NCBI RefSeq assembly: GCF_048403405.1
Contig: NZ_CP183129.1
DNA from: Escherichia coli
GTDB lineage: Bacteria > Pseudomonadota > Gammaproteobacteria > Enterobacterales > Enterobacteriaceae
Direction: 5' to 3' (one strand)
DNA length: 64,000 nt
Shown here: positions 5,624-56,644 of the stretch, one piece after another
Layout of the letters: each line of letters begins with the position of its first letter
Numbering within the stretch: the stretch's first letter is position 1
Translations under genes and position numbers: made by a program
The notes under the pieces: generated by a model
Told to the model about the DNA's origin: nothing
Database searches by the model: none
What the model saw: only the letters and a program-made list of their open reading frames with translations

Positions 5624-6493
5624 TTTTGATGCCAGATCGAAGTTGCGCCGACTAAATCGTCCGGTATTAACCAGTTGCGCAACTTCATCCCATAACACAT
5701 ACAACCAACGCCGCCAGATGAATGACTCCGCCACTGGCGCGCGTTGCAGGTAACTCCAGAGCAAATCTTCCGCCAGAGAATTATCCATTAGTCGGAACAG
5801 TTCGTATTCTCGCGGTGCCCAAAGCATTAGTCCCGGCCCGACCATCGCCAGTAACTGATCGCTGCGCGAATCTTTCAGCATGCTGCGTAAACAGAAGTTA
5901 CCGTGAATCAGCACACAATTGTCGTTAAAGCCTTCAAATAATGCCGGGAGACATTCGCGAGTACGAAACAGGATCCGCTTATCCTGCATCGTTAGCCCGG
6001 TGTTATTGAACTGATTGAGCGTAGTCCATAGCACTTCAACATGTTGCCGGTACCATGAGGGCCAGAAATTTTCCTGAGTATTGTCGACCGCGCCGACGCA
6101 ACCGCGACTGTCCTGACGGTGCCAGGCCAGTAAGGCTTCAACGATTTGATCTTTGAGTTGTTCCCAGCGTTCTGGTGTTCGGGCTGGTGCCTCCACCGAA
6201 ACACCACGCATCCGCTCCAGTAGCAGGACATCGGGGCCGGGGTGTTCTTCATGCGTCATCACACCATAAATAGTCGGCATACGGACAGTTCCACTTCTTG
6301 CCAGCATGGTGGTTTTCCATGCCAGTTGTCGGGCTTTTCCGGGCGTACTAAAGCTTCTTGCCATTAACGGCATTGGGTTTCCCTGGCTGTCATACAAAGC
6401 CCACAACGCCGTATCCGCTTTTTCATTGACGCACTCAATACGACTGAGTTTTTCGCCCAGTAAATGGCTTAATTCGGCACGCAGCTGTTCCAT
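5600..6493 (-). CDS. ycbJ: putative phosphotransferase/kinase-like protein YcbJ
   Basis: 297-aa ORF; synteny between elyC and kdsB. Confidence 0.85.
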   Translation of the reverse strand: MEQLRAELSHLLGEKLSRIECVNEKADTALWALYDSQGNPMPLMARSFSTPGKARQLAWKTTMLARSGTVRMPTIYGVMTHEEHPGPDVLLLERMRGVSVEAPARTPERWEQLKDQIVEALLAWHRQDSRGCVGAVDNTQENFWPSWYRQHVEVLWTTLNQFNNTGLTMQDKRILFRTRECLPALFEGFNDNCVLIHGNFCLRSMLKDSRSDQLLAMVGPGLMLWAPREYELFRLMDNSLAEDLLWSYLQRAPVAESFIWRRWLYVLWDEVAQLVNTGRFSRRNFDLASKSLLPWLV

Positions 6494-6646: not shown

Positions 6647-7572
<926 letters not shown>

Positions 7573-29247: not shown

Positions 29248-31695
29248 TTAACCGTCATGCATCATGCTGGCACGGGCGCGCGCACGTTTATCCCGCTCGT
29301 ATTTTTCGAGCGCATCCTGTAACTGGCGGTCGAGCTGAGTCCCCGGTGCAGTACCGCCCGTCAGACTGATGTGATATTCGTTTTTACTCTGGTCCACATA
29401 AGAGCGGCCAGCCGGTGCCGTAACCGGCTGATAAGCCTGATAGCCTGCATAAGAGCTGGTCGCCGGAATATAACCACCGCTGCCATACGTGGCGGCTTGA
29501 GTTCTGGCGGCGGTCTGGTCAAGTGCGTCAGACTCTTTGTTGATGACCCCGAGCTTTTCCAGTACCCAGTCAATACCGCTGCGCAGTTTGTTGAACGCAT
29601 TAAGCGGCAGCATCAGCGCGTCAGCCAGTGCCTGCCCGAACATGACGCCCGTGTCACGGCAACGATTCAGGGTGTCCTGGGTGGCTTTAACCGGGGCAAT
29701 CAGGTTTTTAAACCACTGCCACGCGGCCTGTAACTTTTCGCCCAGCCAGTCAAACACCGGTTTCAGTGGCGTGAACAGCTCCCCCACCGGCGCAAATGCC
29801 GCTTTCAGCCCTTCAACCACACCGCCAAAGAATGCGCTGACAGGCTCCCAGTATTTACGGATAAGCAACGCCCCGGCGACAATGGCAGCCACCACGGCCA
29901 CAACCGGCCAGCTAATCGCCCCGATGGCCGTCATAATGGCACTACCAACCGTCGTGAAGATTGCACCCATTGCGCCTGCTGCCGCGATGATGGCATTGAT
30001 GCCGGTGATAACCGGCCAGGCTACGAGGCCAATGGCACCGATGACACCAGTCAGCGCCAGTGCACCACCGACAATGATGCCGATGGTTGACGCCAGTGAT
30101 TTGTTTTTCTGTATCCAGCCGTCGAGTTTTAACACATACTTTGTGGCCGTCTGCGTGAGCTTACGCAGCGCGCCTTCCTGCTGGTCAAACAGGTCAGTCC
30201 CCACCGCCTCATAAGCGGACTGAAACTCCTTAAAGTCACCGCCGAGGTTGTCCTGCATGATATTTACCAGCTCCGCGGTCTTCCCGTCTGAGGCTTTAAA
30301 CGCAGCGGTCAGTTTGTCCAGCTTTCCGGTTGAGGCGGCAGTCATCAGCACGGCGGCGGCTGAGCTGGCCTCCTCCCCGAAAATGGTTTTCATGTATTCA
30401 GCCTGCTGGGCAGTACCGAGCCGGTTTTTCTCAAAACTGGCCTGCATTTCTTTCAGAATTGTAAATACTGGTCGGGTGTTTCCCTTGCTATCTGAGGTTT
30501 TCACTCCAAGCTCTTTGAGTGCATCCCATGCTTTTCCCGTCGGTGCCTGCAGGCGACTTAACACGGCACGGCTTCCCGTCCCCGCCATTGAACCGGTAAT
30601 TTTTGCATCATGCAGCGCCCCGACCATTGCGGCGGTTTCTTCAATGCTGACACCGGCATTTTTTGCCACAGGTGCGGCATAGGTCAGCGCATCGCTCATA
30701 CCGTCAAAATCGGCGGCGGTTTTGTTCATCGTCATGGAGAGAACATCCCCGATATGAGCGACCTTATCGTTTGAAAGCTGAAAGGCGGATTTCATCCCCA
30801 TCAGCAGGGCGGCGTTTTCTTCCATCGTGCGACGGTTCGCCAGCGCCATATTCAGCGTGACCGGCGTTGCCGCCTGAATGGCATCAACATCCCCACCGGC
30901 TTTCGCAATAATAATCTGAGCACCGGCTGCATCATCTGCCGAGGCTGCGGTATTGTCGCCGAGCTGGCGCGCCTGCTTGCGGAGCGCGGCCATTTCGGCG
31001 GAGTCTTTTGCCACACCGAGCACGGCCTGCAATTCTGAGTTTTTCTGCGCAAACTCATAACCGGGCATCAGCAACTTAACTCCGGCCATCGTTCCCGCAG
31101 CAGCAATCCCCACACCGGCAGCGCCCACTGAGGCCATATTTCCGGCCAGTTCCTTTCCGGCCTGATAACGCTGTTTGACTGCGTTAAGTTTTGCCTGTTG
31201 CGCACTGACACGCGCCAGCGCGTCACGCTGCCGGTTAAGCTGGGCGGTGGTTTCACTGATACGGTTTTTCAGTCCCTGCTCATCATGTGCAAGATTGCGG
31301 GTATTAATTCCCACAACGGCCAGTTCCCGCTGCTGGCGTTTAACGGAATCCGTCAGGCGGTAATATTTCGCCTGTAAGTCCTCCGCCGCACGCTTCGCGG
31401 ATTCCAGCACTTTCGCCTTAGCACGTGTCGGACGTTCGGTGTTTTTAAACTGTGTTGCAAGGGCTTCGGCCTCCTGCCGTGCCTTTTCAAGTGCATGACC
31501 AGTCACGGCGAGCTGTGCACTGGTCTTGCGAAATCCCTCAATACGGGATGCGTGACCGTTCAGCTCGCGCAGTGATTTTTGTGTTTCCCGGATATCCCCC
31601 GACAGCGATTTGCTCGCTGTGCGGATGGATTTAAACGGGCGGGATGCCTGGTCAACAGCCCTGAGCAATACCTGTAATTTTACATTGTTACTCAT
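29248..31695 (-). CDS. T: tail tape-measure protein T
   Basis: 815-aa Ala/Gly-rich coiled-coil protein with TM stretch; P2 T size. Confidence 0.88.
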   Translation of the reverse strand: MSNNVKLQVLLRAVDQASRPFKSIRTASKSLSGDIRETQKSLRELNGHASRIEGFRKTSAQLAVTGHALEKARQEAEALATQFKNTERPTRAKAKVLESAKRAAEDLQAKYYRLTDSVKRQQRELAVVGINTRNLAHDEQGLKNRISETTAQLNRQRDALARVSAQQAKLNAVKQRYQAGKELAGNMASVGAAGVGIAAAGTMAGVKLLMPGYEFAQKNSELQAVLGVAKDSAEMAALRKQARQLGDNTAASADDAAGAQIIIAKAGGDVDAIQAATPVTLNMALANRRTMEENAALLMGMKSAFQLSNDKVAHIGDVLSMTMNKTAADFDGMSDALTYAAPVAKNAGVSIEETAAMVGALHDAKITGSMAGTGSRAVLSRLQAPTGKAWDALKELGVKTSDSKGNTRPVFTILKEMQASFEKNRLGTAQQAEYMKTIFGEEASSAAAVLMTAASTGKLDKLTAAFKASDGKTAELVNIMQDNLGGDFKEFQSAYEAVGTDLFDQQEGALRKLTQTATKYVLKLDGWIQKNKSLASTIGIIVGGALALTGVIGAIGLVAWPVITGINAIIAAAGAMGAIFTTVGSAIMTAIGAISWPVVAVVAAIVAGALLIRKYWEPVSAFFGGVVEGLKAAFAPVGELFTPLKPVFDWLGEKLQAAWQWFKNLIAPVKATQDTLNRCRDTGVMFGQALADALMLPLNAFNKLRSGIDWVLEKLGVINKESDALDQTAARTQAATYGSGGYIPATSSYAGYQAYQPVTAPAGRSYVDQSKNEYHISLTGGTAPGTQLDRQLQDALEKYERDKRARARASMMHDG

Positions 31696-32171: not shown

Positions 32172-32690
32172 TCACAGGCCGATATTGCGGCGGTGTTGCT
32201 CCAGCCGGTCGACGCCGTTCACCTTCTCAATCATGTTGATGGTGTCGATTTCGACCAGCTCCTTACCGTCCATCGTCAGCCGGAAATAGGTGCAGACCAC
32301 GGAGATTTTCGACTCGGTGTCTTCTCCCTGTTTACCCTCGCCGGTGTCGATTTCTTTCTGACGTCCACGCATGACCACCTCGACGGCCACCGTTTCGCCG
32401 GTATCGTCACGCTGGTAAGAGCCTGCAAAACGAATCGGCACAGCATCCACACCGGTTGCGGCGTAAAGCTCCCAGATAACCGAATCCGGGAAGCCACCCA
32501 GCGACCACTCCATTGACAGCGCATCGTCATCAAGGCCGAGGTCTACCGGTGCGCTGCCGTTCATTCCCGCACCGCGATAGTTTTCGAGCTTACGGGTCAG
32601 TTTTGGCAGCGTGACGGACTTTGCAACGCCCTGATAGCTGTAGCCGTTCAGAAAGACGTTCATTAATTTGAGTTTGCGCGGCATTGCCAT
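32172..32690 (-). CDS. FII: tail tube protein FII
   Basis: 172-aa ORF; matches P2 FII. Confidence 0.9.
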   Translation of the reverse strand: MAMPRKLKLMNVFLNGYSYQGVAKSVTLPKLTRKLENYRGAGMNGSAPVDLGLDDDALSMEWSLGGFPDSVIWELYAATGVDAVPIRFAGSYQRDDTGETVAVEVVMRGRQKEIDTGEGKQGEDTESKISVVCTYFRLTMDGKELVEIDTINMIEKVNGVDRLEQHRRNIGL

Positions 32691-32702: not shown

Positions 32703-33893
32703 TTAATTGCTGTTAACCGAGGTGACCAGATTTGCCAGGTATTTATCGGTAATACGCTGGCGCAGGGTCAGGTTTTCGAGAGGAGGCACCGGTGTATAGT
32801 CGTAGTCGATATACAGTTTTCCGGCCTTGAGGGTTTCCGCATCGTTGGATTCTTCGCTGAACCAGCAGGTCGCATCCACGATATAGCCGTTTGTTTTCAG
32901 CTCACGGAATTTGGCATTGATACCGTCAACGATGTCGCGAATCAGCGTTGCGGTGATGGGCTTGTCCACCGCCCACATGTGCGCCTCAGCCATCGTGTCG
33001 GCCAGCACCTGCGCGGTGCGGGTGTAGTTTTCAAAGAGGAACAGCGGGTCATCAGAGCAGGTACGGTTACCCCAGAAGCGGAAACCGTCGCGGCGAATCA
33101 GCGTAGTGACGCCTGACTCGTTAAGCAGGTCAGCATCGGTGCCGGACTCCTGCAAATCCCAGAATACAGATGCACTGATGCCGGTAACACCGTTCACCCC
33201 AACGTTGGACAGCGTTTTATGCCAGCCCTGCTCCTGGTCGATTTTAGCGCGCAGCCCCAGCGCACGGGCAGTGGCATACGCGGTGGCGGTGGTACTGGTG
33301 ACCGTATCCCATGCGAGGAAATCCGGCCAGATGACCATCAGCTCACGCTGGCTGAAATTCTGGCGGTAGGCTTTCACCTCAGAAATGGTTTTACAGCCCC
33401 ATGCGCTGATATACCCGAAAGCGCGCAGCTTCTGACAGACTGATGCCAGTGCAACAGCCACCTCTTTGGTATCCAGTCCCGGCACGCCGAGAATACGCGG
33501 TTTAACACCGGTTACCGACTCCGCCGCCAGCAGGGCTTTCAGTCCGGTGTACTGACCGTTTTCGTCGGTGGTACCGATGATATTGGAAACGGTCTGCGCA
33601 AGTTTCGTTTCTTCGTCGTCGCCGGTGCCGTCTTCCACGCGCACAACAACGGTGACCGGTTTTGACTGGTCAGCGATGGCCTGTAACGACGCCGCCAGCG
33701 TGCCTTTTTTACCGGCCTTTGCAATTGCGCTCTGCACATTGGTAATCAGCACCGGTTTATTGAGGGGGAAGGTTTCCGCATCTGCATCGCTGGCCGTGCA
33801 GACCATGCCGACAATGGCAGTGGATACGGTGGAAATGACGCGGGTGCCGTCGTTAATCTCCAGCACCTGCACGCCGTGATGATAGTCACTCAT
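32703..33893 (-). CDS. FI: contractile tail sheath protein FI
   Basis: ORF 32703..34007; start placed at ATG 33893 (MSDYHHGVQVLEINDGTR...), 396 aa. Confidence 0.9.
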   Translation of the reverse strand: MSDYHHGVQVLEINDGTRVISTVSTAIVGMVCTASDADAETFPLNKPVLITNVQSAIAKAGKKGTLAASLQAIADQSKPVTVVVRVEDGTGDDEETKLAQTVSNIIGTTDENGQYTGLKALLAAESVTGVKPRILGVPGLDTKEVAVALASVCQKLRAFGYISAWGCKTISEVKAYRQNFSQRELMVIWPDFLAWDTVTSTTATAYATARALGLRAKIDQEQGWHKTLSNVGVNGVTGISASVFWDLQESGTDADLLNESGVTTLIRRDGFRFWGNRTCSDDPLFLFENYTRTAQVLADTMAEAHMWAVDKPITATLIRDIVDGINAKFRELKTNGYIVDATCWFSEESNDAETLKAGKLYIDYDYTPVPPLENLTLRQRITDKYLANLVTSVNSN

Positions 33894-34353
33894 CCGTCTA
33901 ACTCCGTGGTTAATGGGTGAGTGGTATTTTCTGTTGTGCAGAGCATGAGACGCTATTTGACCTGGCTGGTCAGTGGATGAAACAACAGATAAAGAAAAGG
34001 CGGACAATCCGCCCGCCTGTCATGATTTGTACTCACTTATTTCCCGACTGACAATTTACATAGCCAAAACGCTATCAAATCTGACAGTCTGCTTTGAGCG
34101 AGGAGCGGAAGTTAAGGGGCGGTTTAGTATCTAACATGATCTATATGAAATAGTGATTCTTGGCGTATTGCTAATACAACCCCGATTTGATGTAACTCTT
34201 GTCCACTTTCATCTAACTTCCTCTTGTTCAGGTTCATTTTTAACTGCTAATATGCAGTATATAAAGGAACATGGGTTTACCGTTGTAAGATGCTGCTGAA
34301 AGGTAAGCATAATTATATTGTTAGGTGTCTTTTTATTTTTAAAGGCTTTAAAC

Positions 34354-35460
34354 ATGTCTAAAACACGCGATGATTTCAGCTCAAAAACTGTAAGAGCTCT
34401 AGCACTACGGGCTGGTTATAGGTGCTCATTCCCCGGTTGTAATCAGCTTACAGTTGGCCCCAGTGATGAATCCTTAACATCTATCACAAATATTGGGGTA
34501 GCTGCGCACATTCATGCCGCAGCTCCTGGGCCATTAGCAAGACGATATGATCCTAATCAAACACCAGATGAAAGGAAAGATATAAATAATGGCATCTGGA
34601 TGTGTGTTAATCACAGCGTTGAAATTGATAGAGATGAAATTAGATATACAGCAGAAATTCTTAAAGAAATGAAGAAAGCCCACGAAGAAGAGATTAAAAA
34701 AGAGGTGAGCAATGGTTCTTCATCAACCAAACATAATGATTTCATTGCAATAGGTATAGACATTATCGTTTTCGGAGAGCTTACCGGAATCTCAACCAAT
34801 GAGTGGACTATAAAATTTGCAAACTTCTTTACTGGCGATTTATCTAAGTTAATATCTTTCAACGAAAGATTCCACTCCATCCCTACCGAAGAAAAATTTA
34901 TTCTAGTTAATCAACTTGGTGAGGGGCGTTTGTTATCAGCACCAATAAAATTAAATAAATTACCAGATAGCTATGAAGTAATCGTCCCTGTTGAAATAGA
35001 CACTCCGCGCATCAATTGCAATAGCCTCCCAATGGATTTAGATATTTTCACGACAGGCGATTTATTTGTAAATAGTTCTGGTGATATAGCTACGATATCG
35101 GGGTTTGAAGCTTTACCACAAAAAATATATACTTCCCTTTCCACCATTAGAGGTGAGATTTATTCCCATCCAACATTGGGTTCCAGAATAAGACAGTTCT
35201 TCCATGACTTTGAAGGAACAATGTGGCTAGACAAATTAGTTAAATTAGAAGTTATACGCTTATCTTGTATACCAATTTTTGATTCAATCACAAAAAACAA
35301 ATACACTCCATTACATTGTGTAAAAAATGTCAAAAATATTCGGGTGATACCAACTGAATATAAAGATAGCAAATTACCTATTGAGTTCACCCTTGATATT
35401 GAAGGTTTCGGCATCTGGTCCAAAGAAATAAGTGTTTTCTCACCTAAATACGATGAATAA
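34354..35460 (+). CDS. accessory (moron) protein with N-terminal HNH-nuclease-like motif; function unknown
   Basis: ORF 34318..35460 (TTG); probable ATG start 34354 with AAAGG SD. Motif RCSFPGC...AAHIHAAAPG...NNGIWMCVNHSVEID fits the HNH pattern; AT-rich; at the P2 Z/fun variable position. Confidence 0.6.
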   Translation: MSKTRDDFSSKTVRALALRAGYRCSFPGCNQLTVGPSDESLTSITNIGVAAHIHAAAPGPLARRYDPNQTPDERKDINNGIWMCVNHSVEIDRDEIRYTAEILKEMKKAHEEEIKKEVSNGSSSTKHNDFIAIGIDIIVFGELTGISTNEWTIKFANFFTGDLSKLISFNERFHSIPTEEKFILVNQLGEGRLLSAPIKLNKLPDSYEVIVPVEIDTPRINCNSLPMDLDIFTTGDLFVNSSGDIATISGFEALPQKIYTSLSTIRGEIYSHPTLGSRIRQFFHDFEGTMWLDKLVKLEVIRLSCIPIFDSITKNKYTPLHCVKNVKNIRVIPTEYKDSKLPIEFTLDIEGFGIWSKEISVFSPKYDE

Positions 35461-35932
35461 AATTGAAGTTCTTGAACCGCTATATTTGGCTCCGGTATTT
35501 ACTCCGTGAGTGGTATCCTAGGGCCCTGTGCGGAGGATTTCATTGTAATGCTCATACGCTGTAGCCAGGTTCATGTTTCTTCAGCAAGGCCATTTGGGCT
35601 AGTGGCCTGCTCCCCATTGCTCCACACAAAAAATTATTCGTTACGTCCGCTCCTGGCACACAGTAGACATCGAGAGACAGCTTCGAGCGATAATCAGAAG
35701 TTCGCAATTGTCATCACCCAAAAGTTGTTTATAACTTGTAGCAAGGTGCATTGTTCAACGTTGAGTTGGTCAAGTTCAGTTAATGATCGGACGATATCTC
35801 ACTCTGCCCAATAGCACATCTGTTTTACGGGAAGTGAGTTTCAACATCACGAGCTTTGTTAGTAAACATCACTTATTTATTAAGAATATGTTTCATAGAA
35901 CAGGGCCGGAGAACTTAATTTCATATTCTAAA

Positions 35933-35954
35933 AAGTGATGCGCAGACATCACTT
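35933..35954 (-). terminator. hairpin downstream of the 353-aa cargo gene
   Basis: AAGTGATG-cgcaga-CATCACTT about 30 nt after the stop at 35984. Confidence 0.35.
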
Positions 35955-35983
35955 TAAACTTTTTAAAGCGCGAAAACCCTACG

Positions 35984-37045
35984 TCAGAATTTGACAGTAG
36001 GAACGGTTGGCCAGATTCTAGCAATAGACTTAAACATAGTCTCCACAATATATTCGAGAACCTCATCATCAGGCTCTTTCATTAATGCTTTTACTTTATT
36101 TATTCTATCCTGAAGTGAAGGGTGAGATTTTGAAAAACCCCAGTTGTTTTTACCTAACATAGTAACGCTGAATAATGCACAGTATATAGAAAGTCTTCTT
36201 TTCCTGCTCACCAACACACGGTCATACATAGACTCTTCACAGTAATTATCTATATGGTCAAGGATGAATTTATTTGCAAACTCATCACATGAGAACTCTT
36301 CATTATGAGCTTGTTCTTGTGTGAATTCATTCATATCATAACTGGTACCTTCCTGCTGATGAATGATATGTCGGACTTCATGCAAAAATGCCCAAGCAGC
36401 AGCAATAATTGCTAATTCAGCTGTTGCTCTTTTAACTGGTTCGATTTTACTGTCAGGCATGGTGCCAGGTTCAGGAATTCCTATTGGTAGTGGTTTTTCA
36501 TCCGGTACCTCATCTTTAGCCGTGTTTTCAAAAGCGCAGATTAACTGTTCAAAGTTTACGAAGTCTGCCGAACTGAAATCAGCAAGTTCTTCCTGTAGCT
36601 CCTCGAGTAAAACATGTAATTCTGACTCGGTTGAGACTAATGATATTTTCTTTGAGTCAAAAAGATCTAAAATAGAATCCCTTTTATCGATAATGTCTTC
36701 AATTTTTTTATTTTGCTCAGTGTTTATTGCTTCGTAGCCCGCCATTGCAGCAAATGTTCCTATCCAGAACGTGCGCAAAACACGATGATTGAAGCGGATA
36801 AATCGATACATCCCCGCATCAAAAATAAATTTACCGTCTGTATGATTATCGCTATGATTTTGGAAGGTCATGTTAAATTTAGACCAGAACTCATCCAGTT
36901 CATTCTGACGCTCTGGAATAGAGGCTAAAAACATTTTTCTTACGCTGTCCTGAACTGTTTTATCTTCATTATGCTCTTCAAACATTTGCTCACCTATATT
37001 GCTGTTAATTTTATCTAATGATGAACCGAGTGGGTTGTTTACCAA
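35984..37045 (-). CDS. accessory (moron) protein with HEXXH motif (putative zinc metallopeptidase-like); function unknown
   Basis: ORF starts at TTG 37045; more likely ATG 36985 with AGGTGA SD. Motif FLHEVRHIIH; AT-rich; convergent with the HNH gene. Confidence 0.5.
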   Translation of the reverse strand: MVNNPLGSSLDKINSNIGEQMFEEHNEDKTVQDSVRKMFLASIPERQNELDEFWSKFNMTFQNHSDNHTDGKFIFDAGMYRFIRFNHRVLRTFWIGTFAAMAGYEAINTEQNKKIEDIIDKRDSILDLFDSKKISLVSTESELHVLLEELQEELADFSSADFVNFEQLICAFENTAKDEVPDEKPLPIGIPEPGTMPDSKIEPVKRATAELAIIAAAWAFLHEVRHIIHQQEGTSYDMNEFTQEQAHNEEFSCDEFANKFILDHIDNYCEESMYDRVLVSRKRRLSIYCALFSVTMLGKNNWGFSKSHPSLQDRINKVKALMKEPDDEVLEYIVETMFKSIARIWPTVPTVKF

Positions 37046-37248
37046 GCCTCATGTTACATGTTTTTTGCTTTCCGAATATTTAAGCGTTAGAAGCAAGTAG
37101 GAAAAACGTAGAGCAGTTAACCAAGGCTTTCTACAGGCAGATTAACATAACTTGGTCAGGAATGTCCGCTCTTGGCACATAGCGGACTGTCAGATTAGGC
37201 TTTACTCTGTGCTATAGATATGTAAGCTCACACCAGAGATCATACAAC

Positions 37249-37776
37249 TTATTGCGGCATTTCCGGCCATTCGGGATTTGCAGGATCCACACGACTGACC
37301 AGAACGCTGTAGCGTTCCCATGCTTCCAGTCGGCTGCGTTCCTCATCCGTCGCCATATTCAGCCTGACAGCGCGTTCCAGCGGCAAAATCACGGATTCAG
37401 CTTCGGAAAGTAAAGCTGCCTTTTGTGATTCTGCCTGTTGCTCCTGTTCATCTGCCGTATAAATCCGCTTAATCACGGCACCATCCTTAAACATCCATTT
37501 ACCTGAGTCATCAGCACGTCGGTTGGAGGTAATATCAGGAACCTCGACAACGCTGAAACCTTCAGGGTTAAGCGTTGAAGCATCTCTGGTGATGCCGACA
37601 ATTATATTATTCTCGTCGTAAACAATCTTTATCGTGTCTTCCTGAAAATTACTTACTTCCTCATACCAGTTTTTTCCCTCTTCGGACCATAACCAGATAA
37701 CATCAAAATTTTTTGTCAGTTGATATTGGGCAACAGTTTTTGGATTACCCGCAGTAATATTTTTTAAATGCTGCAT
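37249..37776 (-). CDS. G: tail fiber assembly protein G
   Basis: 175-aa ORF; matches P2 G. Confidence 0.88.
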
Positions 37777-37779
37777 AAA

Positions 37780-39825
37780 TTACACCTGTGCGACGTTATA
37801 CCATGTGCCATTGATGTATTTTTGTATTGGCCTGAATACTGCGGGGTCATCACCATCGACTTCACCGACAATACCAAGCCCGGTAATTACGTGCCCTGCT
37901 TTCTCATACATCACCCCTTTCTGCATGGTCTGGACAACACGTGTGCCAAGTCTGATATCTCTCACATAGCGGGAATCAAAGTTACCGTAATCCGAGGGAT
38001 TAACACGCCCCGTAATATTTATGGTCTTATTACTTTGAATGCTTCCGGAAACAAAGCGCATAACATGGACGTTATTAGCATAAACATCCAGATTACCATC
38101 GCCATTTTGTTTAAATCCGGTGTCGTTATCACCAAGAACAATAGAGTTCCCACCCAACGCGTTATTCGTGCCAAGTGCCAGCCCGCCATCAATCCTGGCA
38201 CCATTACCAACAGACACAACTCCTGTTCTTAAGTTGATGCCGAATGGCCTTAATGGCCCAATATCTCCATTTTCACCCTCATTTTCTCGTGTAGGAATGA
38301 TATACAGGTTTTCTTCAGAACGGCGAAAAATAGCACCAAAAGATGAATTAAATATCCTCAGCGCATTGACTGTAGATATTTTTACTTCACTGCTGAAAAG
38401 GGCTTTAACAAGAACATACAGAGCATCCCATTTAAGATTCATCAGGTCTTTTGTTGTGGTGCTCTGGCGACTTCTCCATTTGAAATATTCATTGCCGTTA
38501 TCCCCCGTTTCAAACCACATGTATGAATCAGTGTCACCATCGGCATCATTTTTAAATCCAATCTTCGCCCAGTCAGTATTTCGAATCCAGGCAAGGATTG
38601 AGTCGTTTTCAAAAGTAAGTCCACCGGACAAGGTATCGCCATTTTTTTGCACGGCGTTCCCGGCTCGGTTTACCGTTTCCTGTAAACCGAGATATTCGAT
38701 AACGGCGGCAACGGTCGATTTAGCCAGAATATCCCGCCCGACTTTTGTCAGGGTCGCCAGGCTGGCAACATCATTCCCCGTAAAATACGGAAACCTGTCT
38801 GCCGCAGTAGCAAGCCCCGCCAGCGCCGTCAAAGTGGCATCTTTCGGTTGCTTACCCGCAAGCGCATTAGTCATGGTGGTAGCAAAATTCGGGTCATTGC
38901 CCAGCGCCGCCGCCAGCTCGTTCAGCGTATTCAGTGCGTCAGGCGACGAGTCTACAAGGGCGGCAATCGCGGCCATAACGAAAGCCGTGTTTGCGATCTG
39001 AGTATTATTCGTTCCCTGTCGCGCAGTTGGCGTCGTTGGCGTTCCGGTCAGTGCAGGGCTGTTTAATGGCGCTTTCTTGTTCGTTTCATCCATTACCGTC
39101 TTAACGGCTTTTGGTGTTGCGGCGAGCGTTTCAGACGTGCTGTTGGTCGCACTACTGAGCTGGACAAGGCCTTTTCGCGCTATGGTGGCGTCCTGTGCGG
39201 TATATTTCCCGTTAGCAAGGTCATACGCGGCCTTTACCGCTTTCGGCGTTGCGGCCAGTGTTTCAGACGTGCTGTTGGTCGCACTGCTTAACTGAGTAAA
39301 ACCTTTTGCGGTCAGCGAGGCGTCAGGGTGACGTCGTGACTGTTCATGTTCTGCAATTTTGTCATCAACGTAATCCTGCGTTGCCATCACCGTTGTGGTG
39401 TCAATGGTCAGCTCCACTGAGGCCACACTGCTGACGATGATGACCATGCGGCAGGTCTGCGAACGCCCTGAGCCTTCGGCAAGGGCTGGCTTATAACTTT
39501 CGGCCATGTTCGCCACGGCAATTAGCGTTCCCGCATCATCGTACAGGCCAAGTTCACGCATCCAGAAACCGCCCACCTCCGGCGGAATAACCAGCTCTGC
39601 GATAATATAATTACTGTTTCGTTTGTCCTGGCTGATTTTGTTCAGCGCATGTCGCCAGACTTCGTGGATAAGCCCGGTCTGTCCGGCATCCGGGACAGGC
39701 AATTTACCACCGCCATCCCCGACGGCCATCGTGGTAATGTTGACCTTCCGCCCTCCCGGTGCGGTTGCCGCTGCCAGCTTTGCTGCACCGGCAGTGGTGA
39801 TAACGGTTTTGAATTTTGTGCTCAT
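37780..39825 (-). CDS. H: tail fiber protein H
   Basis: 681-aa ORF; conserved N-terminus MSTKFKTVITTAGAAKLAAA; internal repeat QLSSATNSTSETLAATPKAVK. Confidence 0.9.
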   Translation of the reverse strand: MSTKFKTVITTAGAAKLAAATAPGGRKVNITTMAVGDGGGKLPVPDAGQTGLIHEVWRHALNKISQDKRNSNYIIAELVIPPEVGGFWMRELGLYDDAGTLIAVANMAESYKPALAEGSGRSQTCRMVIIVSSVASVELTIDTTTVMATQDYVDDKIAEHEQSRRHPDASLTAKGFTQLSSATNSTSETLAATPKAVKAAYDLANGKYTAQDATIARKGLVQLSSATNSTSETLAATPKAVKTVMDETNKKAPLNSPALTGTPTTPTARQGTNNTQIANTAFVMAAIAALVDSSPDALNTLNELAAALGNDPNFATTMTNALAGKQPKDATLTALAGLATAADRFPYFTGNDVASLATLTKVGRDILAKSTVAAVIEYLGLQETVNRAGNAVQKNGDTLSGGLTFENDSILAWIRNTDWAKIGFKNDADGDTDSYMWFETGDNGNEYFKWRSRQSTTTKDLMNLKWDALYVLVKALFSSEVKISTVNALRIFNSSFGAIFRRSEENLYIIPTRENEGENGDIGPLRPFGINLRTGVVSVGNGARIDGGLALGTNNALGGNSIVLGDNDTGFKQNGDGNLDVYANNVHVMRFVSGSIQSNKTINITGRVNPSDYGNFDSRYVRDIRLGTRVVQTMQKGVMYEKAGHVITGLGIVGEVDGDDPAVFRPIQKYINGTWYNVAQV
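39101..39311. repeat. imperfect direct repeat (about 80 bp, two copies) inside tail fiber gene H
   Basis: Copies at 39101-39179 and 39233-39311 share an identical 26-nt core GTTTCAGACGTGCTGTTGGTCGCACT. Confidence 0.8.
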
Positions 39826-42340: not shown

Positions 42341-43126
42341 ATGGTCAGCTATAATGTGACTAATGTGTGGGGGCTAATCGTTTTTTTCCTTTGTAGCTTT
42401 GCAGTATTAGCATTTTTTAGCTTTGGTAAAAGTAACCTTATGAGGCTTATTGCACATTATTTCAATTTTGGATATTCAGACAAAAAATTAAAAAGACTTG
42501 ACCGCGAGTGGCGCGACATTCAACTATTTAAAATAATTAATGGAATCAATGTATCAGGCATTGAAAATGTGAGAATGATACAGCAGGGACTGATTGATGG
42601 AAAACTAAAAACATCGTATTTTTTCCTTACTCGCATCTGGGGTGACATAACAAAACCACCACACATAATTAAAACAATAATTGTAATTCTGGCCAGTATT
42701 TTTTACATTCTCCTCGCATGTTACATACACAACGAACAATCCGTTATAGTAAGGGATGCCATAGGCATACCATATAAAAACATGATGTACTATGTTTATA
42801 GTGACAAAGTTCTTTTATCCTTCAAAAATAAAGCAGTTGAATTTAATAAAACTTATAGCCTTGCCGATTGCAAGAGACTGCAAAACGTATTTATAAAAGA
42901 CACACTTCCTGAGATCGCCTGCAATAAGCTCTTACAGCTAAACGAGGAGGACTCCGAATGGTTAAGCCAGGAGATTAAAGATAATAACAGTCACAAAAAA
43001 GCATTATTAATACTATCCCTCGTCTATTTCACTTCAGGTCTGGTTATATTCCTGTCATATACAAAATTCTTTTACGCCAATAAGAAGGTTTTAGAATACA
43101 AAGCATCAAATAAAAATCACTCATAA
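42341..43126 (+). CDS. accessory membrane protein (3 predicted TM helices), function unknown
   Basis: 261-aa ORF with strong SD AAGGAGAG; very AT-rich; opposite strand to flanking V and S; at the P2 orf30 position. Confidence 0.6.
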   Translation: MVSYNVTNVWGLIVFFLCSFAVLAFFSFGKSNLMRLIAHYFNFGYSDKKLKRLDREWRDIQLFKIINGINVSGIENVRMIQQGLIDGKLKTSYFFLTRIWGDITKPPHIIKTIIVILASIFYILLACYIHNEQSVIVRDAIGIPYKNMMYYVYSDKVLLSFKNKAVEFNKTYSLADCKRLQNVFIKDTLPEIACNKLLQLNEEDSEWLSQEIKDNNSHKKALLILSLVYFTSGLVIFLSYTKFFYANKKVLEYKASNKNHS

Positions 43127-52405: not shown

Positions 52406-53113
52406 CTATATATACTTCCTTTTTACTCTACTTAATTCTATCACTGATGAGGAGTGACAAAATGACAAATTAATAGTATCGATATAATCCAAAATTTGAC
52501 TCTCAACCTCAATAAAAATATTTTTGGGCCCATTACTAATCGATATACCGATTTCATCCAAAACAGCCATCATTTTTCTCTGATGAGTTTTATATTTATA
52601 GTCTTTATTTTCCTCTGTAATATGTGCATTGGCTTCCTCAATAACACATTTGATTCTAGATATTATTTCTAGATAATCTCTCGAAACAGATATATCACCG
52701 CCTTGCGCTTCAGGGAACATAACCCTATACCATCTAAAAAAATTAACTTTCTCTGGATAGATGCTACTTCTTTTAGTTAACTCAGCACTTGCAAATTCTC
52801 TAAACATCGTCAGATGACTAGTGTAATTACTATTATTATTATTTTTAACTCCAGCGTTATATGTCATCAAAGCAATCATAACACCAAAAACGGTAACAAA
52901 AGTTGTTATAAGCCATCCAAACGCCTGAAAATACATTACTATACCAGATGTTTTTTCCGCAAAAAATTTTAAGCACTGGCTATCGAAGCATATATCACGC
53001 TCATATAGCTTTTCATTCTGAATAGTTTCAAAAAGAGAAATTAGCGAAAAAATCAAAAAAAGAGCTGACGACACACCGACAATATATTTGAGAAGTCTAA
53101 TATTTGCATTCAT
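52406..53113 (-). CDS. 2-TM membrane protein, translationally coupled to the upstream reverse transcriptase (candidate effector)
   Basis: 235 aa; start ATG overlaps the RT stop (ATGA at 53113-53110); two N-terminal hydrophobic helices; AT-rich. Confidence 0.6.
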   Translation of the reverse strand: MNANIRLLKYIVGVSSALFLIFSLISLFETIQNEKLYERDICFDSQCLKFFAEKTSGIVMYFQAFGWLITTFVTVFGVMIALMTYNAGVKNNNNSNYTSHLTMFREFASAELTKRSSIYPEKVNFFRWYRVMFPEAQGGDISVSRDYLEIISRIKCVIEEANAHITEENKDYKYKTHQRKMMAVLDEIGISISNGPKNIFIEVESQILDYIDTINLSFCHSSSVIELSRVKRKYI

Positions 53114-54384
53114 AATGGTTTTAAAGATGCCAATCTAGATTTAAAACACTCCAGTTTTTCTTTAAATGATTCAGAGCGAGTAAGAATAATCATCTTATAT
53201 CTCGTCAAATCATATTTTCTTTTATACCAATGTTTATTTTGATTACCTTTCGAATACGACAACTCTAAACTTTTTATAGCTGCATCAATCACAGCAACAT
53301 CTCTTTTAGATGGCATCGGTTTTATTGCCTGCAACTGTTTCTTGAATGATTCATATTTTTCATGCCCAACACGGCCAAGCTTATTCACTCTCCCCATACA
53401 TCTATTGAATTCTTTTCTGTATGCAACACTTGTTTTTGTGTTATTTTTTGCCGCCAGTAATTTCAAATTATGTATAGATGCCCTGATTCTTTTGACTTCA
53501 TCGGATGGTAGTCGAGGTGAGTCATAGTCAACTCTTAAACCATGTACTTTTATAGGTTCAGATGAACAGTGAAATATTTTTGTTTTGTGCTTATTTATCG
53601 GCAAGTCATGCTCAGAAAGCATCCTCTCTATATGGCTTTGCATTTGAGAAAAATCATAATTACTTATTTTAGATGACACGGTAATATCATCTACCAAACG
53701 CGTATAAACAAGTCCTTTCCTCTGCGCACGTCTTACCACATCCCCTTCAACAGCGAATAAACACAAAGTTGCTATATAGCTTGATGTTAAGGCCCCCTGT
53801 ACGACAAAATCATCCTTAGTACATATATCCACCAAGTATTCAAGAGCCTCATCCTTAATATGCAATATCTCCTCAAACACGCTCCTAACCAGATCTCTAT
53901 GGATATTATCGAAAAAATTACTTATATCCACCTTGAGAACTGTTTTTGCTCCACAATGAGCCTTTGCACATGAAACATAGTCACGTTTGACATTAGAATT
54001 TAAAACATCATTTTTACTGGGAACTGAACCAAACAAAAATGAAGGAAAAACAACCAATTCCTTAAAAATACGTTTATTAATTCTACTCTGTAATAATCTC
54101 ATTTTAGGATGTAGGGAGTAGACAATCCGTTTGCTTCCGTCAATTTTGGGAATTTCTTTTAGAGTATATTTCTCATCTAATGATAATTCTGCAATAGCTT
54201 TAAGCTCTTCAACAGAAATCGATAAAGCCTTTGACAACTTTTCAAGTGTTGTGATAGGAGCATTGGATTTGCTGTATGGTTTAAATTTATCCATAAACAT
54301 ACCATTCAAATTCAAAGTTACGTACGGTCTTCCCATACTCAAGGGTGGAACAGCAGAGATGCTTACATCAACAATTGTCAGCAA
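53110..54384 (-). CDS. retron-type reverse transcriptase with about 100-aa C-terminal extension
   Basis: RT motifs IPKIDGSKRIVY, CAKAHCGAKTVLKVDISNFFDNI, QGALTSSYIATLCL, YTRLVDDITV (YxDD), IKVHGL. Track start is TTG 54384; in-frame ATGs at 54336, 54300, 54294. Confidence 0.75.
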   Translation of the reverse strand: MLTIVDVSISAVPPLSMGRPYVTLNLNGMFMDKFKPYSKSNAPITTLEKLSKALSISVEELKAIAELSLDEKYTLKEIPKIDGSKRIVYSLHPKMRLLQSRINKRIFKELVVFPSFLFGSVPSKNDVLNSNVKRDYVSCAKAHCGAKTVLKVDISNFFDNIHRDLVRSVFEEILHIKDEALEYLVDICTKDDFVVQGALTSSYIATLCLFAVEGDVVRRAQRKGLVYTRLVDDITVSSKISNYDFSQMQSHIERMLSEHDLPINKHKTKIFHCSSEPIKVHGLRVDYDSPRLPSDEVKRIRASIHNLKLLAAKNNTKTSVAYRKEFNRCMGRVNKLGRVGHEKYESFKKQLQAIKPMPSKRDVAVIDAAIKSLELSYSKGNQNKHWYKRKYDLTRYKMIILTRSESFKEKLECFKSRLASLKPL

Positions 54385-54805: not shown

Positions 54806-56644
54806 TTAATCAGCCAGATAAGGTTCAACTTTATCTTCCCATACACTAAATAAAGGCAAACAAGTTAAATAAAAGATAAAGACACAGGCAAAAACTGAAG
54901 TTGGTTGATAACAATGATTTACAGTATACCTGCCATGAGCCATCGTGTGTCTAATTGCAGCACCACCTTTCATATTGAACAATAAATCCATAGTCAATAC
55001 ATGATCACTATCAAAAACACCTTCCATTTCACTCCTATAATTTGCAAGCATTTGAGATAGGCTAGTAGCCTCCTCAAAAAGCGACACATCTATTTTCGTT
55101 GTTTCTTTTCTTCTTAATTCTAAAATCCATCTAATTGAATTCTCCAATTGCGGCAATAACAAATAACAGGCAGACACATAATCTCCCTGCCAAAGCTTAT
55201 AAAACCCCAAAGAAAATATTTCTGCATACCCAGGTGGAACAAATGCACTTTGTTGTGAGATTGGGTCAAATGTATTTTCATTTAATGAATACCTAGCCAA
55301 CACACTTTGCCTAACGACTTCAAACTCACCACAAACATAGACCTGATGCTCAATGTTACTAGTTCTTAAATAATTTGCACAAGCATCATTTAAACTTATA
55401 TCCCCCGCAGGATCCAAAGGTGAACGACTTGCTACAACGCGCCCTCTATCATCATAAACAACCGTTTCACTCATATTAAGAAAAAAATGTTTTTTAGCAT
55501 CGGAACGAGCTCTTTCCATAATTTCACTGGCACTTACAATCTTAAATCTAGCAATTAAAGTTTTAATTACCCTTGAGAAATCCAATTGATTATAAACATG
55601 CTCTTTCTGAGCGATAACATCACTAAGATCCATTGGTATTGCAAAGAAGTGCATTTCATCATTGATTTGATCTCGAATAGAATTCAATTCCTCTCTAATC
55701 TTTTTAATTTCTTCATTCATTCCACCAATTGCTCTAAATTCGCCAAGAGCAACTCTTAACCAATGAGCCTTCAATATTGAAGATGAAGACTGTTCAAATT
55801 GAGCCAATGTTATTTCTGACGCTTTAATTCTGCACCGTCTTCCTTGCTCTTCCATATCGTTTTTAACATATAATTCAGACGCAAAATAAAACAATTTTTT
55901 CACTGCATCAAAATAAGACGCTCCACAATGCTCATCAGCTATCTTTTCTGCATTCTCAGCCAATTGCAAGGGACACAATAAATTATTCTTATAAAGAATT
56001 TCAGAAACTCTTAATACACCGGTGAATATACCAGAGTCTATTAATACATGATATAACCTTAATGTCGAATCAACTATCCCCCCTTGTAGTTGTTTTTTCC
56101 TGCCAATAAGCATGCGCGATATTGCGATACCTCTATCCAAGCAGTCAACAACATCAAAAATATGGATATCACCTGACTCTTGTTTTTCTATTAAAGTATC
56201 GCAAGCATCATTAACCATTAGAGAATATGACTCTATTGCTTTATTGGCAGAGTCTATATCCTTACGGTTATTTATCCATAAAACATCACACACCCTAGAT
56301 ATAATATAAGGATTATCGGAGTTTTCTTTAATACAAGTTAATATTGTTGAAAAACTCTCCTTATAATCTGAAGGCCTATAGCCCCTCTCAGGATAGAGAA
56401 TGATTTTTGGCTCAAAACCGATAATATCACCAGACCTAGAAAATTTAAAATTAAACAACGCACGTAATAAATAGCAAAGCCGCCAAGAACTTACATCGTT
56501 TTTTAGCTTGTAAGATGACAACAACTGAACAAAATAAGACTCCATATCAAAATGAGAATAACTTCTTGGCGATGATAATATACTGGCGTATTCACTTTTT
56601 TTAAAATCATCAACTGAAATAGAAAAAACATCAAACTCGCTCAT
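54806..56644 (-). CDS. large accessory protein of unknown function (612 aa) at the P2 tin/old position
   Basis: ATG 56644 with strong SD AGGTGAGGA; no Walker A or other recognised motif except a possible Rx4H (IRHTMAHGRY) near the C-terminus; AT-rich. Confidence 0.6.
   Translation of the reverse strand: MSEFDVFSISVDDFKKSEYASILSSPRSYSHFDMESYFVQLLSSYKLKNDVSSWRLCYLLRALFNFKFSRSGDIIGFEPKIILYPERGYRPSDYKESFSTILTCIKENSDNPYIISRVCDVLWINNRKDIDSANKAIESYSLMVNDACDTLIEKQESGDIHIFDVVDCLDRGIAISRMLIGRKKQLQGGIVDSTLRLYHVLIDSGIFTGVLRVSEILYKNNLLCPLQLAENAEKIADEHCGASYFDAVKKLFYFASELYVKNDMEEQGRRCRIKASEITLAQFEQSSSSILKAHWLRVALGEFRAIGGMNEEIKKIREELNSIRDQINDEMHFFAIPMDLSDVIAQKEHVYNQLDFSRVIKTLIARFKIVSASEIMERARSDAKKHFFLNMSETVVYDDRGRVVASRSPLDPAGDISLNDACANYLRTSNIEHQVYVCGEFEVVRQSVLARYSLNENTFDPISQQSAFVPPGYAEIFSLGFYKLWQGDYVSACYLLLPQLENSIRWILELRRKETTKIDVSLFEEATSLSQMLANYRSEMEGVFDSDHVLTMDLLFNMKGGAAIRHTMAHGRYTVNHCYQPTSVFACVFIFYLTCLPLFSVWEDKVEPYLAD

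Follow-up and report, generated by a model that had tools for sequence, protein, structure and literature searches.

A Lit-family metalloprotease gene at the Z/fun site of a P2-like Escherichia coli prophage, probably a stand-alone abortive-infection gene

An AT-rich open reading frame with a HEXXH motif lies among the tail genes of an Escherichia coli prophage, convergent with a gene for an HNH protein. What does it encode, and does it act alone or together with its neighbor? We addressed these questions in a window of 64,000 nucleotides (positions count from its first letter), which is E. coli chromosome with a P2-like prophage. The prophage genes run from the tape measure gene (29248-31695) through E/E', the tube gene FII (32172-32690) and the sheath gene FI (32703-33893) to the cargo, after which come the tail fiber assembly gene G (37249-37776) and the tail fiber gene H (37780-39825). 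From this gene order, the cargo sits at the classical P2 Z/fun site, between G and FI. This is the site of the P2 exclusion cargo fun/Z, with old and tin at the other site. Across 34000-37200 the G+C content falls from about 0.55 to 0.35-0.40, and the reading frame itself is at 0.37-0.38 compared to 0.54-0.58 in the flanking tail genes, in agreement with a preliminary description of it as AT-rich cargo.

Reading frame, family, and predicted fold

The open reading frame spans 35984..37045 on the minus strand and would encode 353 amino acids if counted from the TTG at 37045. The true start is the ATG at 36985, giving a product of 333 amino acids, because the close homologs all begin at a methionine aligned with that of the ATG 36985 product, because an 87%-identical homolog carries a 1-nt indel between the TTG and the ATG (alignment columns ~201-220) that breaks the upstream TTG frame, and because RefSeq and a 2004 GenBank entry also use this start. 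The resulting coordinates are those of RefSeq WP_000461305.1 and of ORF1 of the P2-EC46 Z-region. The Shine-Dalgarno sequence is kept as AGGTG in two homologous loci (L004 and L005). The frame, its TTG and ATG starts, and the best Shine-Dalgarno sequence preceding ATG 36985 were all as first described. The features of the gene are as follows.

35984..36985, minus strand: Lit-family (Peptidase U49) metalloprotease gene, 333 aa, stop codon included
36990..36995, minus strand: Shine-Dalgarno sequence AGGTGA, 5 bases 5' of ATG 36985
36548..36679, minus strand: 44-aa helical insert, residues 103-146, found in the enterobacterial clade only, the most variable segment of the protein
36368..36382, minus strand: HEXXH motif codons H202-E203-V-R-H206, aligned with Lit H160/E161/H164, invariant
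36296..36301, minus strand: E229-E230 codons, invariant, 23-24 residues after H206, aligned with Lit E180/E181
35932..35955, minus strand: hairpin and U tract ~30 nt past the stop codon, 10-bp stem by RNA folding and 9 pairs by scanning

The protein is almost certainly a full-length member of the Lit/Peptidase U49 family, that is, a Lit-family metalloprotease. The NCBIfam Lit model NF007238 matched residues 36-335 of the 353-aa frame over profile positions 13-269 of 309 (E 3.4e-22), PADLOC called Lit at E 9.5e-10, and Pfam Peptidase_U49 (PF10463) matched residues 205-317 of the 353-aa frame (E 5.9e-6, 26.5 bits). When the protein was compared by BLASTP to K-12 Lit (from the e14 region of MG1655), residues 186-319 aligned at 23% identity (E 3e-8). 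When a profile of the subfamily was compared by hhalign to a wider Lit/U49 profile built from K-12 Lit and 33 wider-family representatives, the two aligned over 261 columns with a probability of 100% and E 1.8e-55. Among 5.8 billion proteins searched, there were 38 relatives, and PF10463 was precomputed for 38/38. The sequence had been called otherwise unrecognizable, but its whole length is homologous to Lit/Peptidase U49, and RefSeq already gives the product the name "phage exclusion protein Lit family protein."

How wide this family is can be seen from an exhaustive profile search of 1.84 billion representatives, in which 1,013 clusters matched at E<=1e-3 and 148 of them at E<=1e-30. Scores fell steadily from ~250-440 bits for the best full-length representatives to ~120-160 bits for the other full-length members listed, and the 333-aa enterobacterial clade appeared as a single cluster representative, P0005. 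No Lit structure was found in the PDB. The PDB sequence search gave only marginal matches to the SMC6 coiled coil (E about 0.04) at residues 80-135 of the 333-aa protein; this stretch is a long helical arm into which part of the insert falls, and we dismissed the matches as meaningless.

The sole HEXXH of the 333-aa protein is HEVRH, at residues 202-206, within LHEVRHIIH. In the BLASTP alignment it falls on the catalytic HEISH (160-164) of K-12 Lit, and it is invariant in 31/31 aligned family members, with K-12 Lit among them. Thus, it is no chance match. It is likewise invariant in the alignment of K-12 Lit with the 33 wider-family representatives. The invariant residues of the 31-sequence alignment are P24, E25, W74, P173, E190, W198, H202, E203, H206, Q210, E229, E230, D234, K262, R263, H288, P289, and R294; those both invariant and common to Lit are P24 E25, H202 E203 H206, E229 E230, D234, K262 R263, H288 P289, and R294. 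E229/E230 are the candidate third zinc ligand, of the gluzincin type. The homology to Lit spans the N-terminal PE(R/K) domain, the catalytic helices, and the C-terminal HP...R motif.

The AF2 model of the protein has a pLDDT of 93.4 and a pTM of 0.91. Foldseek matches in AFDB50 at E<=1e-3 were nearly all Peptidase U49/Lit proteins, and the full-length matches at E<=1e-7 had TM scores of 0.6-0.97. As modeled, the Lit-like protein is a HEXXH protein with a zincin fold of the zinc-metallopeptidase type, and its protease activity is putative. The earlier reading of LHEVRHIIH as a zinc-metallopeptidase motif is backed by the alignment to K-12 Lit and by the invariance across the family, with the motif placed in a predicted peptidase fold and the confident homology being to a peptidase family.

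We also looked for the signals that would govern expression. The hairpin at 35932..35955 is a probable intrinsic terminator of the Lit-like gene and could act bidirectionally; its statistical support is weak (z = -1.4). Upstream of the gene, a sigma-70 scan called no promoter, and shuffled sequence contained more promoter-like sites than the region did. Reading the leader manually, we noted only a -10-like TAAAAT at about 37014-37009. No terminator was found after gene G, and transcription of the late H-G operon could therefore run on into the Lit-like gene. Positions 33900-37400 gave no Rfam matches at E<=1. The leader also holds a near-palindrome, CATGTAACATG, at 37050-37060 on the minus strand, ~65 nt upstream of the ATG, which is kept in the 87% and 74% homologs. 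This near-palindrome could be an operator or other regulatory site.

Probable function and the question of specificity

Lit is a founding example of abortive infection, and to our knowledge the protein encoded by e14 is the only Lit protein studied. The e14 protein is a zinc protease with a HEXXH motif and is latent. When the Gol segment of T4 gp23 attaches to domains II and III of EF-Tu, domain I becomes exposed; Lit then cleaves EF-Tu at Gly59-Ile60, which halts translation (PMC3014915). By analogy, the Lit-like protease would be produced in the lysogen and held inactive. Upon entry of a competing phage, a late phage product (in the case of Lit, nascent major capsid protein in complex with EF-Tu) would render an essential host translation factor cleavable (for Lit, EF-Tu, at the bond given above). 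The halt in translation would then kill the infected cell with no release of phage, thereby protecting the sister lysogens and the prophage that they carry.

We believe, with a probability of roughly two in three, that the gene encodes a Lit-family protease and works in abortive infection as a stand-alone gene. Single-gene abortive infection of the same kind is the most likely mode of action because conservation extends to the catalytic and structural residues as well as to the N-terminal domain. An anti-phage role by abortive infection is likely. With regard to its parts, the analogy makes EF-Tu a credible substrate at slightly under even odds, and a trigger derived from the capsid is a more tentative suggestion. 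Counted against this reading are the identity of only 23% to K-12 Lit over the catalytic half, the lack of a called sigma-70 promoter upstream, and the rarity of the cargo pair.

The strongest competing explanation keeps the Lit fold and abortive infection but assigns a substrate and/or trigger other than those of e14 Lit, e.g., another translation factor, a phage protein, or the sensing of a noncapsid phage product, with the helical arm at residues 103-146 as the specificity element. The divergence from K-12 Lit speaks for it. The protein scores 79 bits compared to the 274-bit equivalog cutoff of NF007238, which makes it a member of the family and rules it out as an ortholog of K-12 Lit; substrate and trigger may therefore differ. 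K-12 Lit is itself an outlier in the family, at 16-22% identity to the other representatives. The 44-aa insert is carried by an enterobacterial clade that consists of the window protein and P0002-P0007, and it is missing from K-12 Lit and from the nonenterobacterial members of the subfamily. It also evolves fastest, with an identity of 23-34% versus 67-75% in the catalytic core among four homologs of 55-57% overall identity. In the predicted structure it extends a long helical hairpin. Divergence and insert together leave real room for a specificity other than that of e14 Lit.

However, the N-terminal domain and every invariant residue, whether catalytic or structural, are common to Lit, which favors conservation of the core mechanism. 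As EF-Tu is universally conserved, we see no obvious pressure to switch substrate, and nothing in our analysis pointed to another one. We therefore regard a changed specificity as unlikely, though worth serious consideration, and retain Lit-type abortive infection as the preferred reading. Our literature search found no experimental test of any member of this Lit subfamily.

The cassette, its mobility, and the HNH neighbor

The preliminary description had the Lit-like gene convergent with the HNH gene, outside a common operon, and possibly acting on its own. The boundaries of the cargo bear on this point, and they are marked by a hairpin element, GTCYGCT-N10-AGCGGAC with conserved flanking bases, that occurs three times in the window where none is expected by chance.

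37165..37196, minus strand: right boundary hairpin (GTCCGCT-N10-AGCGGAC), just downstream of the tail fiber assembly gene G
35685..37176, minus strand: mobile Lit cassette of 1.5 kb, made up of a ~190-nt leader, the gene, and a ~300-nt trailer
35643..35668, minus strand: middle boundary copy, separating the Lit cassette from the HNH cassette
34078..34112, plus strand: left boundary copy, inverted compared to the other two, upstream of the tail sheath gene FI

With three copies so placed, the HNH gene and the Lit-like gene are each flanked by two copies of the element. The cassette at 37176..35685 has 90% DNA identity to a locus in an unrelated, non-P2 island, where it is found with a reverse transcriptase and an SLFN gene; the stretch of 90% identity begins within one hairpin element and ends just short of another copy. 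In unrelated non-P2 islands the element flanks a Lit gene and a reverse transcriptase system, with copies at 1196-1251, ~5806-5840, and ~7275-7300 of locus L004 and at ~5800-5830 and 7155-7215 of locus L005. It is present in 1-3 copies in 1,707/5,426 complete E. coli genomes and is thus no high-copy REP. In GenBank AJ512680, inverted repeats are annotated at the outer two copies only. We consider the element a likely recombination anchor for cassette exchange.

Homologs of the Lit-like protein at 87%, 74%, and 57% identity occur singly in three differing islands. One setting has a reverse transcriptase and an SLFN/AlbA_2 gene, another an OLD-like TOPRIM gene and an integrase next to smpB, and the third is an ICE, near T4SS genes and ArdC. 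The Lit-like gene is a stand-alone single gene on a mobile element, in a cassette of its own. A broader proposal would make the enterobacterial Lit subfamily a functionally distinct exclusion protease, with trigger or substrate set by the arm, that spreads as a hairpin-bounded cassette between P2 Z/fun hotspots and chromosomal or ICE defense islands by recombination at the shared boundary element. Taken as a whole, we think this proposal improbable, at perhaps one chance in a handful.

The HNH frame (34318/34354..35460, plus strand) converges with the Lit-like gene across a gap of 523 nt. Its product is from a separate family, which numbers at least 276 proteins and has a common full-length architecture. 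In the four genomic contexts that we read, members lie beside a type ISP restriction enzyme or a DUF4238 protein, or else on the edge of a T4SS region, and none has a Lit neighbor. Conversely, no HNH gene was near the Lit-like homologs in three other loci, and no conserved co-occurrence of the two genes across lineages was found. Because they come from separate families that are never neighbors elsewhere, the HNH gene and the Lit-like gene are independent modules joined in the hotspot, and the three claims of the preliminary description hold.

The same observations weigh on the idea of a two-gene system in which the protease controls or activates the nuclease, or the reverse. Both genes are always together in E. 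coli and in P2-EC46, and 0 complete E. coli genomes have either gene alone at high DNA identity, which would fit such a system. Set against this are the convergent arrangement, a gap holding a boundary repeat and an IS3 scar, the lack of this HNH neighbor beside any Lit-like homolog and of a Lit neighbor in the HNH contexts, and a Lit cassette that moves alone. We judge a two-gene system very unlikely and keep the stand-alone reading.

Two further observations concern the spacer itself. An 80-nt fragment at 35492-35571 is ~78% identical to IS3-family transposase DNA and is the scar of an earlier insertion. We considered the 523-nt spacer as a common P2 boundary sequence and rejected this, as apart from the IS3-like fragment and the repeat element it is confined to the same five genomes that carry the cargo.

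Regarding the HNH gene, its product is a three-part fusion of a family that often adjoins other defense genes. It matches the PADLOC candidate PDC-M68A at the N terminus only. The Cap5 SAVED sensor seems to have been replaced in it by baseplate-like modules, and these may sense tail parts of invading myophages. We also considered the C-terminal domain as a copy of the gpW of this prophage, but BLASTP similarity was absent. The HNH gene looks more novel than the Lit-like gene.

The cargo is rare. Positions 34000-37300 are 99.9-100% identical to five complete E. coli genomes (e.g., strains 4621 and MS 69-1), and the cargo pair occurs in 5/5,426 complete genomes of the species. The region is also 99.8% identical to AJ512680, "Bacteriophage P2-EC46 proviral Z-region, ORF1 and ORF2" (2004). 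Lit genes are almost absent from sequenced phages, with 1 match to the Lit-like gene among 50,697 phage records, so that a rare event is documented here. Homologs of roughly 25% identity are present on 48 plasmids, mostly conjugative Klebsiella plasmids. A 2026 preprint reports a Lit homolog in one P2-like prophage and otherwise mostly in plasmids and uncharacterized regions, and our own counts agree with its picture. A search on P2-EC46 within the literature available to us returned nothing, and Rousset et al. (2022) mention neither Lit, HNH, nor fun.

AJ512680 labels the Lit-like ORF1 a "putative lysogenic conversion protein," which raises the possibility of a conversion or virulence factor, or else of an inert passenger with no current function. 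Where a host or source is given for the five carrier genomes, it is mostly human, with at least one isolate from blood, and the promoter is only putative. However, the protein is acidic, has a soluble all-helical model, and lacks a signal peptide and a membrane segment, and defense genes are its neighbors in other loci. With a dN/dS of 0.21-0.28 relative to homologs in other genomes and contexts, the gene is under purifying selection, and values of 0.2-0.3 across differing mobile contexts argue against decay. We give very little credence to either variant compared to abortive infection. The weakest candidate is an ImmA/IrrE-type (M78) anti-repressor or a SprT-like protease that acts on a prophage or host regulator and does not exclude phages: it would fit a HEXXH within a small helical zincin and a few AFDB fragments of the same family labeled "IrrE N-terminal-like," but the profile check for ImmA/IrrE, M78, and SprT families that had been proposed gave no Pfam match even at E<=10 (U49 was the sole Pfam family reported, with Peptidase_M78 unmatched), no HTH/XRE repressor gene is adjacent in the window or in loci L004-L006, and the full-length match is Lit.

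Known systems and the other variable sites

The closest comparison is Lit itself, the cell death peptidase (MEROPS U49) of the e14 cryptic prophage of K-12. The two proteins are of the same family over their full length, with HEXXH at the same position, the same invariant EE, D, KR, HP, and R residues, and the same predicted zincin core, and each is encoded by a single prophage gene. They differ in sequence (~23% identity) and in length (333 versus 297 aa), with the 44-aa variable helical insert in the longer one, and in location, as the e14 lit gene is next to the e14 integrase and the Lit-like gene is in the P2 Z/fun hotspot. The P2 fun/Z cargo is the closest comparison by position: like it, the Lit-like gene lies between G and FI, is AT rich, and was horizontally acquired. 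As with the P2 exclusion genes, the Lit-like cargo presumably excludes competing phages. Unlike P2, the site holds two cassettes instead of fun, to which the Lit-like gene is unrelated in sequence and mechanism.

More distant proteins share less. The M48 zincins (BepA/YfgC, HtpX, and ZMPSTE24) and other gluzincins are 11-19% identical to the Lit-like protein, which gave no sequence-profile match to M48 or to SprT-like zincins, has no TPR or membrane domains, and differs in its N-terminal domain. ImmA/IrrE (Peptidase M78) proteins are also small HEXXH metalloproteases on mobile elements, but the Lit-like protein has neither an M78 profile match nor a partner repressor gene. CapRel-SJ46 and type IV Thoeris, known for capsid sensing or EF-Tu cutting, may follow the same logic, in which a phage structural protein is sensed and translation is shut down; the proteins are unrelated, and this is an analogy only.

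What we describe is a distant, intact, prophage-borne relative of Lit with a confident predicted structure and a variable arm specific to its clade. It provides a convenient second system in which to ask whether the family as a whole cleaves EF-Tu and senses capsid. In practical terms the gain is modest, because the annotation preexists and the mechanism most likely repeats the known one: the RefSeq Lit-family name, the 2004 GenBank entry for the locus, and the mention in the 2026 preprint are already available. Taken together, the Lit-like gene is a plausible but ordinary anti-phage gene.

The same prophage has cargo at other positions as well. At the other P2 variable site (52406-54384 and 54806-56644, both on the minus strand) there is a type IV (Ec48-like) retron, with matches to its reverse transcriptase (RT_IV, E 1e-176) and 2TM effector (E 4e-85), and a 612-aa DUF7380 protein that matches the PADLOC candidate PDC-S39 (E 2e-68). 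The retron 2TM gene is whole in the window and is split in two pieces by the RefSeq annotation of strain 4621. A third AT-rich island (42341-43126, plus strand, G+C 0.35) lies between the baseplate gene V and the virion morphogenesis gene, at the P2 orf30 position. Its product, named "hypothetical protein" in RefSeq and without a PADLOC match, is 261 aa long and has a hydrophobic segment at each end.
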